A stretch of DNA of 64,000 nt from Escherichia phage S143_2. The notes below the pieces were generated by a model. It saw only the letters and a program-made list of their open reading frames with translations. It had not been told where the DNA came from and ran no database searches. This document shows positions 3,123 through 62,221 of the stretch, piece after piece. Numbering within the stretch: the stretch's first letter is position 1; each line of letters opens with the position of its first letter. The stretch lies in the sequence record MZ189261.1; one strand, written 5' to 3'. Made by a program: the position numbers and the translations under genes.

Positions 3123-4691
3123 ATGACTACTATCAAAACTAAAGCTCAGCTCGTAGACAAATGGAAAGAACTGCTGGAAGGCGAAGGCCTGCCGGAAATC
3201 GCTAATAGCAAGCAGGCTATTATCGCTAAAATCTTCGAAAACCAGGAAAAAGATTTCGAAGTATCCCCTGAATATAAAGACGAGAAAATCGCTCAGGCAT
3301 TTGGTTCTTTCTTGACCGAAGCTGAAATTGGTGGTGACCACGGTTATAATGCTCAGAACATCGCAGCAGGTCAAACCTCTGGTGCAGTAACCCAGATTGG
3401 GCCAGCAGTTATGGGTATGGTTCGTCGTGCTATTCCTAATCTGATCGCTTTTGATATTTGTGGTGTTCAGCCTATGAACAGCCCGACCGGTCAGGTATTT
3501 GCTCTCCGTGCAGTATATGGTAAAGACCCTATCGCTGCTGGCGCTAAAGAAGCTTTCCATCCGATGTATGCCCCGGACGCGATGTTCTCTGGTCAGGGTG
3601 CTGCTAAGAAATTCCCAGCTCTGGCTGCTGGCACACAAACCACAGCAGGTGATATCTATACTCACTTCTTCCAGGACACTGGTACTGTGTATTTGCAGGC
3701 TTCTGTTCAAGTAACAATTGATGCTGGCGCTACCGATGCAACTAAATTAGATGCTGAAATTAAGAAACAAATGGAAGCCGGTGCACTGGTAGAAATCGCT
3801 GAAGGTATGGCCACTTCTATCGCTGAACTTCAGGAAGGCTTCAATGGTTCTACCGACAACCCGTGGAACGAAATGGGCTTCCGTATCGACAAACAAGTTA
3901 TTGAAGCTAAATCTCGTCAGCTGAAAGCAGCTTACTCCATCGAATTGGCACAAGACCTCCGTGCAGTACACGGTATGGATGCTGATGCTGAACTGAGTGG
4001 TATTCTTGCTACTGAAATTATGCTGGAAATCAACCGTGAAGTTGTTGACTGGATTAACTACTCCGCTCAGGTTGGTAAATCTGGTATGACTAATATCGTT
4101 GGTTCTAAAGCTGGTGTATTTGACTTCCAGGACCCGATTGATATCCGTGGTGCTCGTTGGGCCGGTGAAAGCTTTAAAGCTCTGTTGTTCCAGATTGATA
4201 AAGAAGCAGTTGAAATTGCTCGTCAAACCGGTCGTGGTGAAGGTAACTTCATTATCGCTTCCCGTAACGTAGTTAACGTACTGGCTTCAGTTGATACTGG
4301 TATTTCTTATGCTGCACAGGGTCTGGCTTCTGGTTTTAATACCGACACTACTAAGTCTGTATTTGCCGGTGTACTTGGTGGTAAATACCGCGTATACATC
4401 GACCAGTATGCTAAACAGGATTACTTCACCGTTGGTTACAAAGGCGCTAACGAAATGGATGCAGGTATTTACTATGCTCCTTACGTTGCACTTACCCCAC
4501 TGCGTGGTTCCGATCCTAAGAACTTCCAGCCGGTAATGGGCTTTAAAACTCGTTACGGTATCGGTGTTAACCCGTTTGCTGAAAGTTCCCTGCAGGCTCC
4601 AGGTGCTCGCATCCAGTCCGGTATGCCGTCTATCCTGAACAGCCTTGGTAAGAACGCTTACTTTAGACGCGTCTACGTTAAAGGAATTTAA
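3123..4691 (+). CDS. 23: Major capsid protein gp23
   Basis: 522 aa (T4 gp23 521 aa); highly biased codon usage typical of a very highly expressed gene; followed by CUUCGG hairpin terminator. Confidence 0.95.
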   Translation: MTTIKTKAQLVDKWKELLEGEGLPEIANSKQAIIAKIFENQEKDFEVSPEYKDEKIAQAFGSFLTEAEIGGDHGYNAQNIAAGQTSGAVTQIGPAVMGMVRRAIPNLIAFDICGVQPMNSPTGQVFALRAVYGKDPIAAGAKEAFHPMYAPDAMFSGQGAAKKFPALAAGTQTTAGDIYTHFFQDTGTVYLQASVQVTIDAGATDATKLDAEIKKQMEAGALVEIAEGMATSIAELQEGFNGSTDNPWNEMGFRIDKQVIEAKSRQLKAAYSIELAQDLRAVHGMDADAELSGILATEIMLEINREVVDWINYSAQVGKSGMTNIVGSKAGVFDFQDPIDIRGARWAGESFKALLFQIDKEAVEIARQTGRGEGNFIIASRNVVNVLASVDTGISYAAQGLASGFNTDTTKSVFAGVLGGKYRVYIDQYAKQDYFTVGYKGANEMDAGIYYAPYVALTPLRGSDPKNFQPVMGFKTRYGIGVNPFAESSLQAPGARIQSGMPSILNSLGKNAYFRRVYVKGI

Positions 4692-4718
4692 TGCTTTAAC
4701 GTTAAAATACATAACCTT

Positions 4719-4748
4719 ATGGGAGACTTCGGTCTCCCATTTTTGGTT
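4719..4748 (+). terminator. Rho-independent terminator after gene 23 (GGGAGAC-UUCG-GUCUCCC + U tract)
   Basis: Perfect 7-bp GC-rich stem with UUCG tetraloop followed by TTTTGGTTTT. Confidence 0.7.
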
Positions 4749-5018
4749 TTATTTCTGTGCAATTTCGATGTAAGTTTTCAAAATATTTTGCCAATTAGGC
4801 ATACCTTCTTGGACATATGCCGGAGAACCGTCTTTGTTTTTGAATGATGCAAGTTTATCAGTGGCCCAATAACCTTTAGCTCGAGCTTCAGAATCAACTT
4901 TCATCCATACTTTGTTGAAGGCGTTACCATTAACTTTTGCACCATATTTTTCTACCAACTTAACTGCTTCAGCTTCTAGAACTTTTAAAGTATCTCGTAA
5001 GAAACGTGCTTTAGTCAT
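4749..5018 (-). CDS. Hypothetical protein, 89 aa (antisense to flanking late genes)
   Basis: ORF with strong RBS (AGAGGAG 8 nt upstream) and its own early-type promoter; occupies the 23/24 intergenic slot where T4 carries segD. Confidence 0.55.
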   Translation of the reverse strand: MTKARFLRDTLKVLEAEAVKLVEKYGAKVNGNAFNKVWMKVDSEARAKGYWATDKLASFKNKDGSPAYVQEGMPNWQNILKTYIEIAQK

Positions 5019-5048
5019 TTTGTTTACTCCTCTGTAGTTGATAAGTTT

Positions 5049-5078
5049 ATAGTATCACATACCAAATACGTTGTAAAC
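5049..5078 (-). promoter_or_regulatory. Early sigma70-type promoter (-35 GTTTAC, 18-nt spacer, -10 TACTAT)
   Basis: T4 early-promoter pattern on - strand upstream of ORF 4749..5018. Confidence 0.5.
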
Positions 5079-5084
5079 AATCTT

Positions 5085-5092
5085 TATAAATA
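5085..5092 (+). promoter_or_regulatory. Late promoter TATAAATA (gene 24)
   Basis: Exact motif 28 nt upstream of gene 24 ATG. Confidence 0.55.
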
Positions 5093-5119
5093 ATCTATAT
5101 CACATAAGGAAAAAATGCA

Positions 5120-6403
5120 ATGAGTAAAATCCAAAAATTATTGCGTGAATCTACAACGTCTACTAGCAACTCAATTGGTCGCCCAAATCTCGTTGCTTTG
5201 ACTCGCGCTACGACTAAATTAATATATTCTGACATTGTAGCAACACAAAGAACTAATCAACCTGTTGCTGCTTTTTATGGTATCAAATATCTTAACCCAG
5301 ATAACGAATTCACATTTAAAACTGGTGCTACTTATGCTGGCGAAGTTGGATATGTAGACCGAGAAAAAATTACTGAGCTCACAGAAGAATCAAAAGTCAC
5401 ACTAAATAAAGGCGATTTTTTCAAATATAATAATATCGTCTATAAAGTGTTAGAAGATACACCATTTGCAGATATTCAAGAAAGTGATCTAGAATTAGCT
5501 CTTCAGATTGCAGTCGTTCATTTAAAGGTACGGTTATTTTCAGATGCAGCGGTAACAAGCAAATTTGAAAGTTCTGGTAGCGAAATTTCTGATGCAAGAT
5601 TCCAGATTAATAAATGGCAAACTTCGGTCAAATCTCGTAAACTTAAAACAGGTCTCACGGTTGAATTAGCGCAAGATTTGGAAGCGAATGGATTTGATGC
5701 CCCTAACTTCTTAGAAGATTTGCTTGCTACTGAAATGGCTGATGAAATTAATAAAGATATTCTTCAGTCTTTAATTACTGTATCGAAACGCTATAAAGTT
5801 ACTGGAATTACTGACACCGGATTTATTGACTTGAGCTATGCGTCCGCTCCAGAAGCAGGTCGTTCGTTATATCGAATGGTGTGTGAAATGGTATCACACA
5901 TTCAAAAAGAGACAACTTATACTGCAACGTTTTGTGTAGCCTCAGCTCGTGCAGCTGCTATTCTTGCTGCTTCCGGTTGGTTAAAACATAAGCCAGAAGA
6001 TGACAAGTATCTTTCACAAAATGCTTATGGATTCTTGGCAAATGGATTACCTCTTTACTGCGATACCAACAGTCCGTTAGATTATGTTATTGTGGGTGTT
6101 GTAGAAAATATCGGCGAAAAAGAAATTGTAGGGTCCATCTTTTATGCTCCATACACTGAAGGAGTAGATTTAGATGACCCGGAACATGTCGGTGCATTTA
6201 AAGTTGTAGTTGATCCAGAAAGCTTGCAACCGTCTATCGGATTATTGGTTAGATACGCTTTATCAGCAAATCCTTACACAGTAGCAAAAGATGAAAAAGA
6301 AGCGAGAATAATTGATGGCGGGGACATGGATAAAATGGCAGGACGTTCAGACTTGTCTGTTTTACTCGGTGTTAAATTGCCTAAAATCATCGTTGATGAA
6401 TAA
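5120..6403 (+). CDS. 24: Head vertex protein gp24
   Basis: 427 aa (T4 gp24 427 aa); TATAAATA 28 nt upstream; gp23-paralog position. Confidence 0.9.
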   Translation: MSKIQKLLRESTTSTSNSIGRPNLVALTRATTKLIYSDIVATQRTNQPVAAFYGIKYLNPDNEFTFKTGATYAGEVGYVDREKITELTEESKVTLNKGDFFKYNNIVYKVLEDTPFADIQESDLELALQIAVVHLKVRLFSDAAVTSKFESSGSEISDARFQINKWQTSVKSRKLKTGLTVELAQDLEANGFDAPNFLEDLLATEMADEINKDILQSLITVSKRYKVTGITDTGFIDLSYASAPEAGRSLYRMVCEMVSHIQKETTYTATFCVASARAAAILAASGWLKHKPEDDKYLSQNAYGFLANGLPLYCDTNSPLDYVIVGVVENIGEKEIVGSIFYAPYTEGVDLDDPEHVGAFKVVVDPESLQPSIGLLVRYALSANPYTVAKDEKEARIIDGGDMDKMAGRSDLSVLLGVKLPKIIVDE

Positions 6404-6433: not shown

Positions 6434-7432
6434 TTATGATACTAATTCAATCCATGCAGGACGCAGAACATCTTGCACCATTCGGACTAATTCTTTCTTA
6501 ACAAGATTCGGATTATCAGATGATGTTAATACAATACCTTCACGAGAAGTTTCTTCCAGAATATCTTGAACAGTCAATCCCATCACTTTGCCAAAATCTT
6601 TTGGCGTTACAGTCCCAATCTTAGAAATAACATTATTAACACGATTTAATGTAACATAACAAGCTAGAACACCAAGCAAGTTTTTGTCAATTTCGGTTAA
6701 TGGAACCTGAGTTTTAATAGGCTTATCAGACTTTTTCTTTTCACTGAATTTAGAGTTCTTGCACTTAATAGCTACACGAGTACCGTTTGGCAGCCATTTA
6801 GGGAAACAAGGCTTCAGAACATAACCTTCTGCTGTATTATTGCCAATAACATTAGCATCAAATACACAATTATTTGCTTCTACAAGGTCTTCTGACGCAG
6901 TAGCATTATAAGCGGCTAAGACTGAATCAAGGTCGTTTGGAATCATGATAAGAGCATCAAATGTTCCACGACCAAGCATTGGTGCCATTTTAAAACCGAA
7001 TTCATTACAGAAATCTTGCATTTCGTAATCGGTCAAATACGTATTATCACCACTTTCTGTATTGATAATGATATCGAACACATAAAAATCTTTTTCACCG
7101 TAGTCAACACCTTTCTGGATTCCACCACCAGCGAATTCACCGAATACTTGATATGATACGGCTCGAGCTTCGTGCATTAATTCCTGAACGGCTTTAATAG
7201 CCTTATCATACTTCTTGAGTACGATTTCATAGCCGTAAAAATCTTCTGCTGGAAGAATAGGGCCTGTGCGCTTGGCGCATGTGACGTTGTCACGTTCAAT
7301 TATTAACGAGAAGTTGGTCCCGTGGATTTTCTCACGTGCTACCCAAACACCAGTAGTCAAACCATTAGTGTAGAGTTTTTCAATAAACTTAGAGTTGTAG
7401 TGGTTTTCAAGACTGCTGTATTTCTTAAACAT
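6434..7432 (-). CDS. rnlB: RNA ligase 2 (Rnl2)
   Basis: 332 aa; N-terminus [19 protein letters not shown] matches T4 Rnl2 as remembered; nucleotidyltransferase motif I KIHGTN. Confidence 0.9.
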
Positions 7433-7551
7433 AAATCACCATTATAAATAATAATATCAAAATAATTAGCAGAGACTCTATCTCCGACCCGATGTTTAAT
7501 TTGAATGGATAGAACCTAGATTCATTATACCATCAAAAAATGTAAAGCATA

Positions 7552-20378: not shown

Positions 20379-20408
20379 ATAGTATCACACATCCATGTGT
20401 TTGTAAAC
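20379..20408 (-). promoter_or_regulatory. Early promoter (GTTTAC / TACTAT)
   Basis: Pattern inside 3' end of alt, upstream of ORF 20056..20349. Confidence 0.45.
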
Positions 20409-31190: not shown

Positions 31191-31220
31191 ATAGTATCAC
31201 AACTCCACCATGTTGTAAAC
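31191..31220 (-). promoter_or_regulatory. Early promoter (GTTTAC / TACTAT)
   Basis: Upstream of ORF 30926..31162. Confidence 0.45.
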
Positions 31221-34722: not shown

Positions 34723-34752
34723 ATAGTAACACCTTCCTTGGTGTTTGTAAAC
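34723..34752 (-). promoter_or_regulatory. Early promoter (GTTTAC / TACTAT)
   Basis: Just downstream of rnlA stop, upstream of ORF 34192..34692. Confidence 0.45.
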
Positions 34753-35905: not shown

Positions 35906-35935
35906 ATTGTACCACAATCCTTGTGGCATGTAAAC
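35906..35935 (-). promoter_or_regulatory. Early promoter (GTTTAC / TACAAT)
   Basis: Upstream of rnlA ATG at 35879. Confidence 0.45.
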
Positions 35936-46140: not shown

Positions 46141-46169
46141 ATAGTAACATACTCATTTGAAAGCGTAAA
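46141..46169 (-). promoter_or_regulatory. Early promoter (GTTTAC / TACTAT) for rnh
   Basis: Upstream of rnh ATG 46108; back-to-back with the + strand late promoter of gene 34. Confidence 0.45.
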
Positions 46170-46173
46170 CTGG

Positions 46174-58443: not shown

Positions 58444-59076
58444 TCACAGTACGTTAGTTACAAGGGTAATGATTTCTTTGGACACATTAGGGAAGTCAAT
58501 GTAAGTATATTTACCACCGATCTTAATCTTAACATCATTTTCAAGAGAAGTAAACAGTTTTGATTCGGTTTCTGACATGTTGTATGCAAATATTCTAAGA
58601 GAACCATCTCGACGAATTTCGATCTGACGAATACCTAGAACTCGTTTTGCAAATCGAACTTCCAAGTTACTACGGTTTTCACCAATTTCTTTAACTTCAA
58701 CTTTATCTTTAATATTTTCAAAAACAAAGTTTGCTAGTTCATGCATTTCAGGAGTAACTCCACGTGCTTTTCTAGTGTTACGTTTCTGAAGAAGTTCTGG
58801 AGCATTTTCTTGGGCAAAGAGGTCTGCAGCTTTTTGGATAATATCCATTGCTTCGCCTGTTGCTATAAGTCCATCACCAGATTTTTCGACTAAACCTTTC
58901 TTAATCAATACGCCAATGTTAGAGTTAACAACCGATGCATTGTATTCCGCTTCCAGAGCTTCACGGACATTGGCAGCAGTGGTGAAGTTGTTCTTAATGA
59001 TATAAACCATTATTGCAGCAGTTTTTTCATTCAGAGCGTTTTCGGAAGCTTTGATGATGTAAGTAACTTTAGACAT
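58444..59076 (-). CDS. motA: Middle-transcription activator MotA
   Basis: 210 aa (T4 MotA 211 aa); similar N-terminus and central GLLIKKGLVEKSGDGLI segment as remembered; early promoter upstream. Confidence 0.8.
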   Translation of the reverse strand: MSKVTYIIKASENALNEKTAAIMVYIIKNNFTTAANVREALEAEYNASVVNSNIGVLIKKGLVEKSGDGLIATGEAMDIIQKAADLFAQENAPELLQKRNTRKARGVTPEMHELANFVFENIKDKVEVKEIGENRSNLEVRFAKRVLGIRQIEIRRDGSLRIFAYNMSETESKLFTSLENDVKIKIGGKYTYIDFPNVSKEIITLVTNVL

Positions 59077-61682: not shown

Positions 61683-61712
61683 ACTATACCATAATCCTAC
61701 CTTGATGTAAAC
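61683..61712 (-). promoter_or_regulatory. Early promoter (GTTTAC / TATAGT)
   Basis: Upstream of ORF 61454..61654; 6-bp arms GTAGGA/TCCTAC flank -10. Confidence 0.45.
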
Positions 61713-62191: not shown

Positions 62192-62221
62192 ACTATATCA
62201 TAGTCCTACTTAGTTGTAAAC
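62192..62221 (-). promoter_or_regulatory. Early promoter (GTTTAC / TATAGT)
   Basis: Upstream of ORF 61902..62165; 7-bp arms TAGGACT/AGTCCTA flank -10. Confidence 0.45.

Follow-up and report, generated by a model that had tools for sequence, protein, structure and literature searches.

A small antisense gene with a predicted T4-type early promoter between capsid genes 23 and 24 of a Mosigvirus: a candidate accessory cassette in a variable slot

The window, a 64,000-nucleotide stretch of DNA from Escherichia phage S143_2 (MZ189261.1), carries the head-gene block of a T4-like phage, with the 3′ part of the portal gene followed on the plus strand by genes 67, 68, 21, 22, 23 and 24, and with rnlB next after gene 24 on the minus strand. 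The phage belongs to the genus Mosigvirus (RB69-like) and displayed 97–99.5% identity to many coliphages by megablast. Between gene 23 (major capsid protein; 3123..4691) and gene 24 (capsid vertex protein; 5120..6403), both on the plus strand, an ORF of 89 amino acids with an ATG start was read on the minus strand at 4749..5018, antisense to the flanking late capsid genes. The initial annotation had described this ORF as having a strong ribosome binding site and its own early promoter, and as lying between the terminator of gene 23 and the late promoter of gene 24, and every one of these elements was confirmed at its reported place. The Shine-Dalgarno sequence AGAGGAG was located at 5027..5033 (minus strand, running from 5033 to 5027) with a spacer of 8 nt to the ATG, and its GGAG core was kept in every T4-like homolog compared. 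A promoter of the T4 early type, which is read by host sigma-70, was located on the same strand at 5049..5078, with its −35 element GTTTAC at 5078..5073 and its −10 element TACTAT at 5054..5049. On the plus strand the intrinsic terminator of gene 23 (4719..4750) lies on one side of the ORF and the late promoter of gene 24 (TATAAATA; 5085..5092) on the other, back to back with the early promoter and marking the upstream edge of the cargo. The cargo of the window occupies roughly 4749–5083, the interval left between the terminator tail and TATAAATA.

The ORF promoter reads TTTACA-N17-TACTAT, with a TG that forms an extended −10 (TG-A-TACTAT) and with AT-rich sequence upstream (GATTATTTATAAAGATT). 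All the sequence features of a T4-type early promoter were present, namely a −35 GTTTAC, a spacer of ~17 nt, TAnnnT with an extended −10 and AT-rich upstream sequence. A generic sigma-70 scan of the 600-nt neighbourhood of the ORF returned one site where 1.6 were expected, which is not above chance. The T4-early pattern GTTTAC-N15-TGnTAnnnT occurred nine times across the 64 kb, each time on the minus strand, with 0.09 expected by chance; enrichment was 100-fold over shuffles and 0/100 shuffles reached nine. This number of sites, restricted to one strand, indicates a real promoter class confined to the early-gene strand, and the site of the ORF therefore belongs to that class. The eight further exact matches lie on the minus strand at 20379–20408, 31191–31220, 34723–34752, 35906–35935, 46141–46170, 58526–58555, 61683–61712 and 62192–62221. 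Together the nine sites map the early transcription units of the window, and three of them, including the site at 5049–5078, share the −10 region TGTGATACTAT.

The same promoter arrangement was conserved beyond the window. GTTTAC-N18-TAnnnT was found 59–60 nt before the ATG in 8/10 T4-like contexts with a homolog, with unrelated spacer sequences, and the remaining two contexts each displayed a one-base difference (GTGTAC in L010, CATAAT in VR20). From the promoter class and its conservation, the ORF is predicted to be expressed early. The RB69 counterpart of the promoter had been predicted earlier with an HMM as Pe:109605 on the minus strand, and the same supplements also give the late promoter Pl:109573 and a terminator ‘23-><-RB69ORF188c’ (Nolan et al., 2006; PMC1524935). 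Just upstream of the early −35, the minus strand at 5084–5091 reads TATAAAGA, a 7/8 match to the late promoter consensus explained by the near-palindromic nature of TTTATAAA; the ORF may therefore also be transcribed late to some extent.

The gene 23 terminator consists of a 9-bp stem closed by a UUCG loop (4719..4740; GGGAGAC-UUCG-GUCUCCC), followed by a U-tract (TTTTTGGTTTT), and its hairpin has a free energy of −19 kcal/mol (z = −4.7). It is the only stable hairpin within 4600–5200, and the stop codon of the ORF (4749–4751) overlaps the end of its tail. The hairpin was kept in WG01, and in VR20 a different hairpin substitutes for it, this one with a T-run on the ORF strand. Read on the minus strand, the window hairpin is equally stable (−19.1 kcal/mol) but has no U-tract, so the ORF transcript may end at the hairpin or may run on in antisense to gene 23. 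Such read-through into gene 23, together with the close back-to-back packing of the early and late promoters, could be taken to mean that the antisense transcript or the promoter itself is functional, for example as an early antisense RNA into gene 23, and that the ORF is incidental. We regard this as very unlikely. Selection on the ORF acts at the protein level (described below), homologs outside the slot are not antisense to capsid genes, the T-run of the VR20 hairpin is on the ORF strand, and an Rfam scan of the interval gave sub-threshold noise only with no family match.

The initial annotation had also called the interval between genes 23 and 24 a plasticity hotspot that holds different cargo in different T4-like phages, with segD as its occupant in T4, and the genomes compared bore out both statements. 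The slot was empty in five sampled lineages (RB5, Marfa, CC31, Cronus and Aeh1), with 84–90 nt between the two genes and the gene 23 terminator nearly abutting TATAAATA. It held segD in T4, in the same antisense orientation as the window ORF, a 504-aa homing endonuclease in Yersinia phage fHe-Yen9-01 and a 475-aa nuclease in Acinetobacter phage Kimel. In RB49 (L018, 2448–3187) a gap of ~740 nt was observed between genes 23 and 24, in which only a 50-aa sense-strand ORF is annotated. The late promoter TATAAATA was invariant across all T4-like contexts compared. The sequence upstream of T4 segD aligned in register with the window promoter (TATTTATAAAGT-TATTTACAAG...TGATATTAT; T4 L023 2334–2423 against window 5019–5119), and the early-type promoter of segD (TATTTACAAG...TGATATTAT) directly abuts the gene 24 late promoter, in the same place as in the window. 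This alignment in register suggests that a back-to-back module of late and early promoters stays fixed in the slot, with the cargo behind it being exchanged.

The window protein itself is unlike these nucleases. T4 SegD is a free-standing GIY-YIG homing endonuclease of 223 aa, compared to 89 aa for the window protein, and the two are unrelated (hhalign probability 1.2%). A remnant of a homing endonuclease was rejected on the same grounds, with hhalign probabilities of 1.0% for the fHe-Yen9-01 endonuclease and 0.2% for the Kimel nuclease, and no nuclease domain or motif was found in the 89-aa protein with Pfam. Since nucleases occupy the same slot in three phages, and since the DNA upstream of segD is in register with the early promoter of the ORF, a role in competition between phages was considered, either as an exclusion or immunity factor or through occupancy of the slot that blocks homing endonuclease genes such as segD. 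We judge this improbable: no similarity to the slot nucleases was detected (hhalign probability 1.2% or less), and copies of the gene occur in three other genomic contexts, so its function would be independent of the slot.

The initial annotation had named lack of conservation in related phages as grounds for doubting the ORF, and this was clearly not the case: tblastn detected it in 239 phage records. Approximately 120 of these are mosigviruses in which the gene is intact, with 80–100% identity. The other 119 records have less than 60% identity (30–38% among the matches listed), and those examined were Dhakavirus or Gaprivervirus. All T4-like genomes and contigs inspected had the homolog antisense between genes 23 and 24, as in the window (VR20, WG01, 04086, L010, L012, L024, L026, L027, Shf125875, O157 typing phage 6 and OLB35). 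The gene had been described as inserted at this site, which is not to be taken as meaning a recent insertion. It is fixed in Mosigvirus and sits in the same slot in Dhakavirus and Gaprivervirus at 30–37% identity, and is therefore an old resident of the clade. When relatives with an empty slot were sought within Mosigvirus in order to map a recent insertion, all three checked carried the ORF. One record with an organism name beginning with ‘Acinetobacter’ also matched the 89-aa protein at E ≤ 1e-3, and this could be a further host range or a mislabelled record.

Homologs were 84–93 aa in length, with F6, an NGN-x-x-N loop or turn and Q70 invariant. In all 36 pairwise comparisons of ORF homologs pN was lower than pS. 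The least saturated pair, WG01 and 04086, had a dN of 0.04 and a dS of 0.32, giving a dN/dS of 0.14, and the window ORF compared to the 90-aa homolog P0006 gave ~0.18. These substitution patterns show that the ORF encodes a genuine protein on which purifying selection acts. The protein evolves much faster than its capsid neighbours: between the window and VR20 its identity was 37%, compared to 84% for gp23 and 71% for gp24. The name carried by P0006 at JGI, ‘NADPH-dependent curcumin reductase CurA’, is clearly a mis-annotation.

Disrupted copies were found in three phages. In RB69 (NC_004928, L006) the copy at 7292–7532, equivalent to window 4749–5018, is frameshifted twice, by a +1 insertion that falls within a short scrambled patch and, ~150 nt downstream, by a −1 deletion, and for this reason it was annotated as two fragments, ORF188c and ORF189c. 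This copy could be a genuine pseudogene of a laboratory strain or could reflect an error in the 2003 reference sequence. The gene is split in phage mogra and truncated in 310Ecol104PP. From the disruption in these three phages it follows that the gene is not needed for growth on laboratory hosts, and repeated pseudogenization could also mean that it has little selective value. Taken further, the independent disruptions, together with the very small size of the family (about 20 clusters, as given below), would fit a nearly neutral passenger, a hitch-hiking ORFan kept by its position between two essential capsid genes. There is little to recommend this explanation in view of a dN/dS of about 0.14–0.18, which shows selection at the protein level, of the retention of frame, promoter and ribosome binding site across three genera at 30–37% identity, and of the intact copies in about 120 mosigvirus records.

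The 89-aa protein is basic, with a pI of 9.6, a net charge of about +5.5, a negative GRAVY and no hydrophobic segment. It matched PHROG 6003 over its full length (E = 2.1e-45; 153.6 bits; residues 1–89 against profile positions 1–90 of 90). The AlphaFold2 model, built on an alignment of 14 sequences, had a pLDDT of 89.1 and a pTM of 0.76, and consists of two helices (residues 3–25 and 31–48), a beta-hairpin (strands 56–60 and 66–70) and a final helix (76–88). The same topology was predicted for P0023, the most divergent member of the family, with a pLDDT of 92.4. No recognizable features had been reported for the protein in the initial annotation, and Pfam, NCBIfam, PADLOC, PDB and BFVD likewise gave no informative match. 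Nothing meaningful was returned by NCBIfam or PADLOC, and a sequence search of the PDB gave hits to glucuronyl hydrolases at E = 0.077. A DUF4859 or carbohydrate-related function was rejected, since the Pfam match reached 17.9 bits compared to a cut-off of 22.6 and was found for 2/14 members. Foldseek against the PDB gave a best E of 0.49 or more, a probability of 0.20 or less and a TM-score of 0.27 or less, and a fold search of BFVD returned only the protein's own homolog. Neither the PDB nor BFVD contains a known relative of the predicted fold.

The charge of the protein bears on how it might act. A pI of 9.3–9.9 was found in 8/9 family members, and a charge this uniformly basic is as compatible with binding of nucleic acid as with binding of protein, if not more so. 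Binding of DNA or RNA early in infection, tuning phage or host expression in the manner of small basic T4 early proteins, would also agree with the helix-helix-hairpin layout and with faint Foldseek matches to winged-helix domains such as DnaD-N, ORC2 and Cdt1. A winged-helix DNA-binding domain was rejected as no significant superposition was obtained, and a regulatory role of this kind is in our estimate unlikely.

Searches for family members covered 1.8–5.8 billion proteins. An exhaustive profile search of 1.84 billion representatives, together with word-indexed searches, closed the family at about 20 clusters, all on phage contigs, with neither fusions nor bacterial copies among them. Two giant surface proteins (P0022 and P0024) with 9–11 matching stretches each were considered as carriers of the family as a repeat domain and rejected. 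The stretches are all-beta Big_2, filamin and Ig repeats, and because such repeats cannot fit a mainly helical model the matches were taken to be spurious and additive. A 160-aa product (P0020), of which the last ~30 residues match the Dhakavirus protein, comes from a contig of 701 nt and is probably an assembly chimera.

Outside the 23–24 slot there are three members. P0021 (contig L008) is located among consecutive small genes, one of them T7 gp0.6-like, on a contig with only short matches to Erwinia and Salmonella phages. P0023 (L009) lies just after a lambda-J-like tail tip gene, on a contig with distant relatives among Serratia siphoviruses; it is placed between hairpins and has a 10/12 sigma-70 promoter of its own. 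P0014 (L014) is at the head of a cluster of small genes that diverges from the baseplate-hub genes of a divergent T4-like contig. In this last case (L014 2880–3300) the similarity to the Dhakavirus copy at the DNA level is confined to the stretch from the −10 element to the stop codon, its end coinciding exactly with the latter. Another early promoter (GTTTACAAC) follows at once, so that two early promoters bound the unit. The boundaries of this single copy are suggestive of a cassette exchanged by recombination between early promoters.

The feature as such is already known: more than 200 deposited genomes list it as a hypothetical protein, and for RB69 the promoter, the terminator and the adjacent late promoter were all predicted in 2006. 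The window ORF belongs to the same family as the hypothetical proteins grouped as PHROG 6003, RB69ORF188c-189c and VR7 gp190-like, a family without an assigned function. The window protein is 100% identical to proteins of many mosigviruses, including the BASEL phage ChristianSchoenbein (MZ501056); RB69's own PHROG 6003 copy, unlike that of the window, is frameshifted. Literature searches with the RB69 ORF names, accessions and the PHROG identifier returned nothing, and no published function was found.

Shuffling of ORFan cassettes mediated by promoter and stem-loop elements (PeSLs) has been described in T4-type phages (Arbiol et al., 2010, PMC2839356; Comeau et al., 2014, PMC4122927), and the L014 copy with its two bounding early promoters is reminiscent of it. 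The window locus resembles these cassettes in that a non-essential ORFan with a strong early promoter, and with a stem-loop on its other side, occupies a plastic spot inside a conserved core, and in that its promoter fits the PST/T4-type consensus TTTACW-N17-TAYWAT. It differs in the position of the stem-loop, which is the terminator of gene 23 and is separated from the promoter by the ORF, a distance of ~300 nt. Neither a recombination event nor a mini-circle was observed. A composite PeSL, with a stem-loop directly adjacent to the promoter, was thus not found at the window locus, and a late promoter lies immediately upstream instead. A second comparison is with the small immediate-early factors of T-even phages, among them nrdC.1 and bas37_0203, which were reported by HIDEN-SEQ as functionally orphan anti-defence genes (bioRxiv 10.1101/2025.11.20.689424). 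These are likewise small, early, non-essential, fast-evolving and without known domains or structural relatives. HIDEN-SEQ and the accessory-gene screens used T4, Bas37 and Bas54 and no mosigvirus, and the window gene lies outside their coverage.

Taking the evidence together, we consider it probable that the locus is a self-contained, non-essential, immediate-early accessory cassette in a variable slot of a T4-like phage, and that its product is a host-interaction factor. Under this proposal unmodified host sigma-70 RNA polymerase would start transcription at ~5042 on the minus strand right after infection, giving a monocistronic mRNA of roughly 320 nt for which the hairpin, used in common with gene 23, would serve as the end point or as a stabilizing element. 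Efficient translation of this mRNA would yield a small, basic, cytoplasmic protein with a helix-helix-hairpin-helix layout, which would most likely act stoichiometrically by binding a host macromolecule. The protein may in this way take part in host takeover or counter-defence, and be of importance in some hosts only. An accessory role of this kind is suggested by the fast divergence around a conserved core, the dispensability of the gene in the laboratory, its horizontal spread among enterobacterial phages and the small early genes that neighbour the copies outside the slot.

The initial annotation had noted that small early proteins of this type are frequently host-takeover or anti-defence factors, and by analogy such a specific role is plausible here, though we would put it at somewhat less than an even chance. 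No homology to a characterized anti-defence protein was found in the PDB (by sequence or by fold), in BFVD or in the literature, and no similarity in sequence or structure pointed to a target. A broader reading, which we put forward tentatively, is that the family comprises new immediate-early counter-defence or host-takeover factors with an unseen fold, encoded by a promoter-bounded cassette that would have moved between slots of Straboviridae and into unrelated enterobacterial phages. If this were true, the frameshift in RB69 would help explain differences in host range between RB69 and wild mosigviruses.

The gene is a well-defined candidate for functional screens, being small, early, fast-evolving and non-essential, and having a confidently predicted fold without a relative. 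RB69 provides a natural knockout and the BASEL collection contains wild-type carriers, and transposon or accessory-gene screens could cheaply assign a target. The locus also illustrates clearly how cargo is swapped in a slot with fixed promoter and terminator within the otherwise rigid capsid block of T4-like phages.

Two further observations were made on the genes that flank the slot. In 04086 (Dhakavirus; L004, OR842557; 2767–5046) the annotated major head gene has a length of only 1110 nt, an unannotated stretch of ~735 nt separates it from the small ORF, and a 137-aa ORF lies on the opposite strand just beyond. This arrangement may represent a mobile-element insertion or an intron in gene 23, or may be a problem of annotation or assembly. 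Gene 24 was present as two tandem paralogs in Gaprivervirus, Dhakavirus, Marfavirus and Roskildevirus (L002, L003, L010, L012, L016, L021 and L027), and as a single gene in the window, RB69 and T4.
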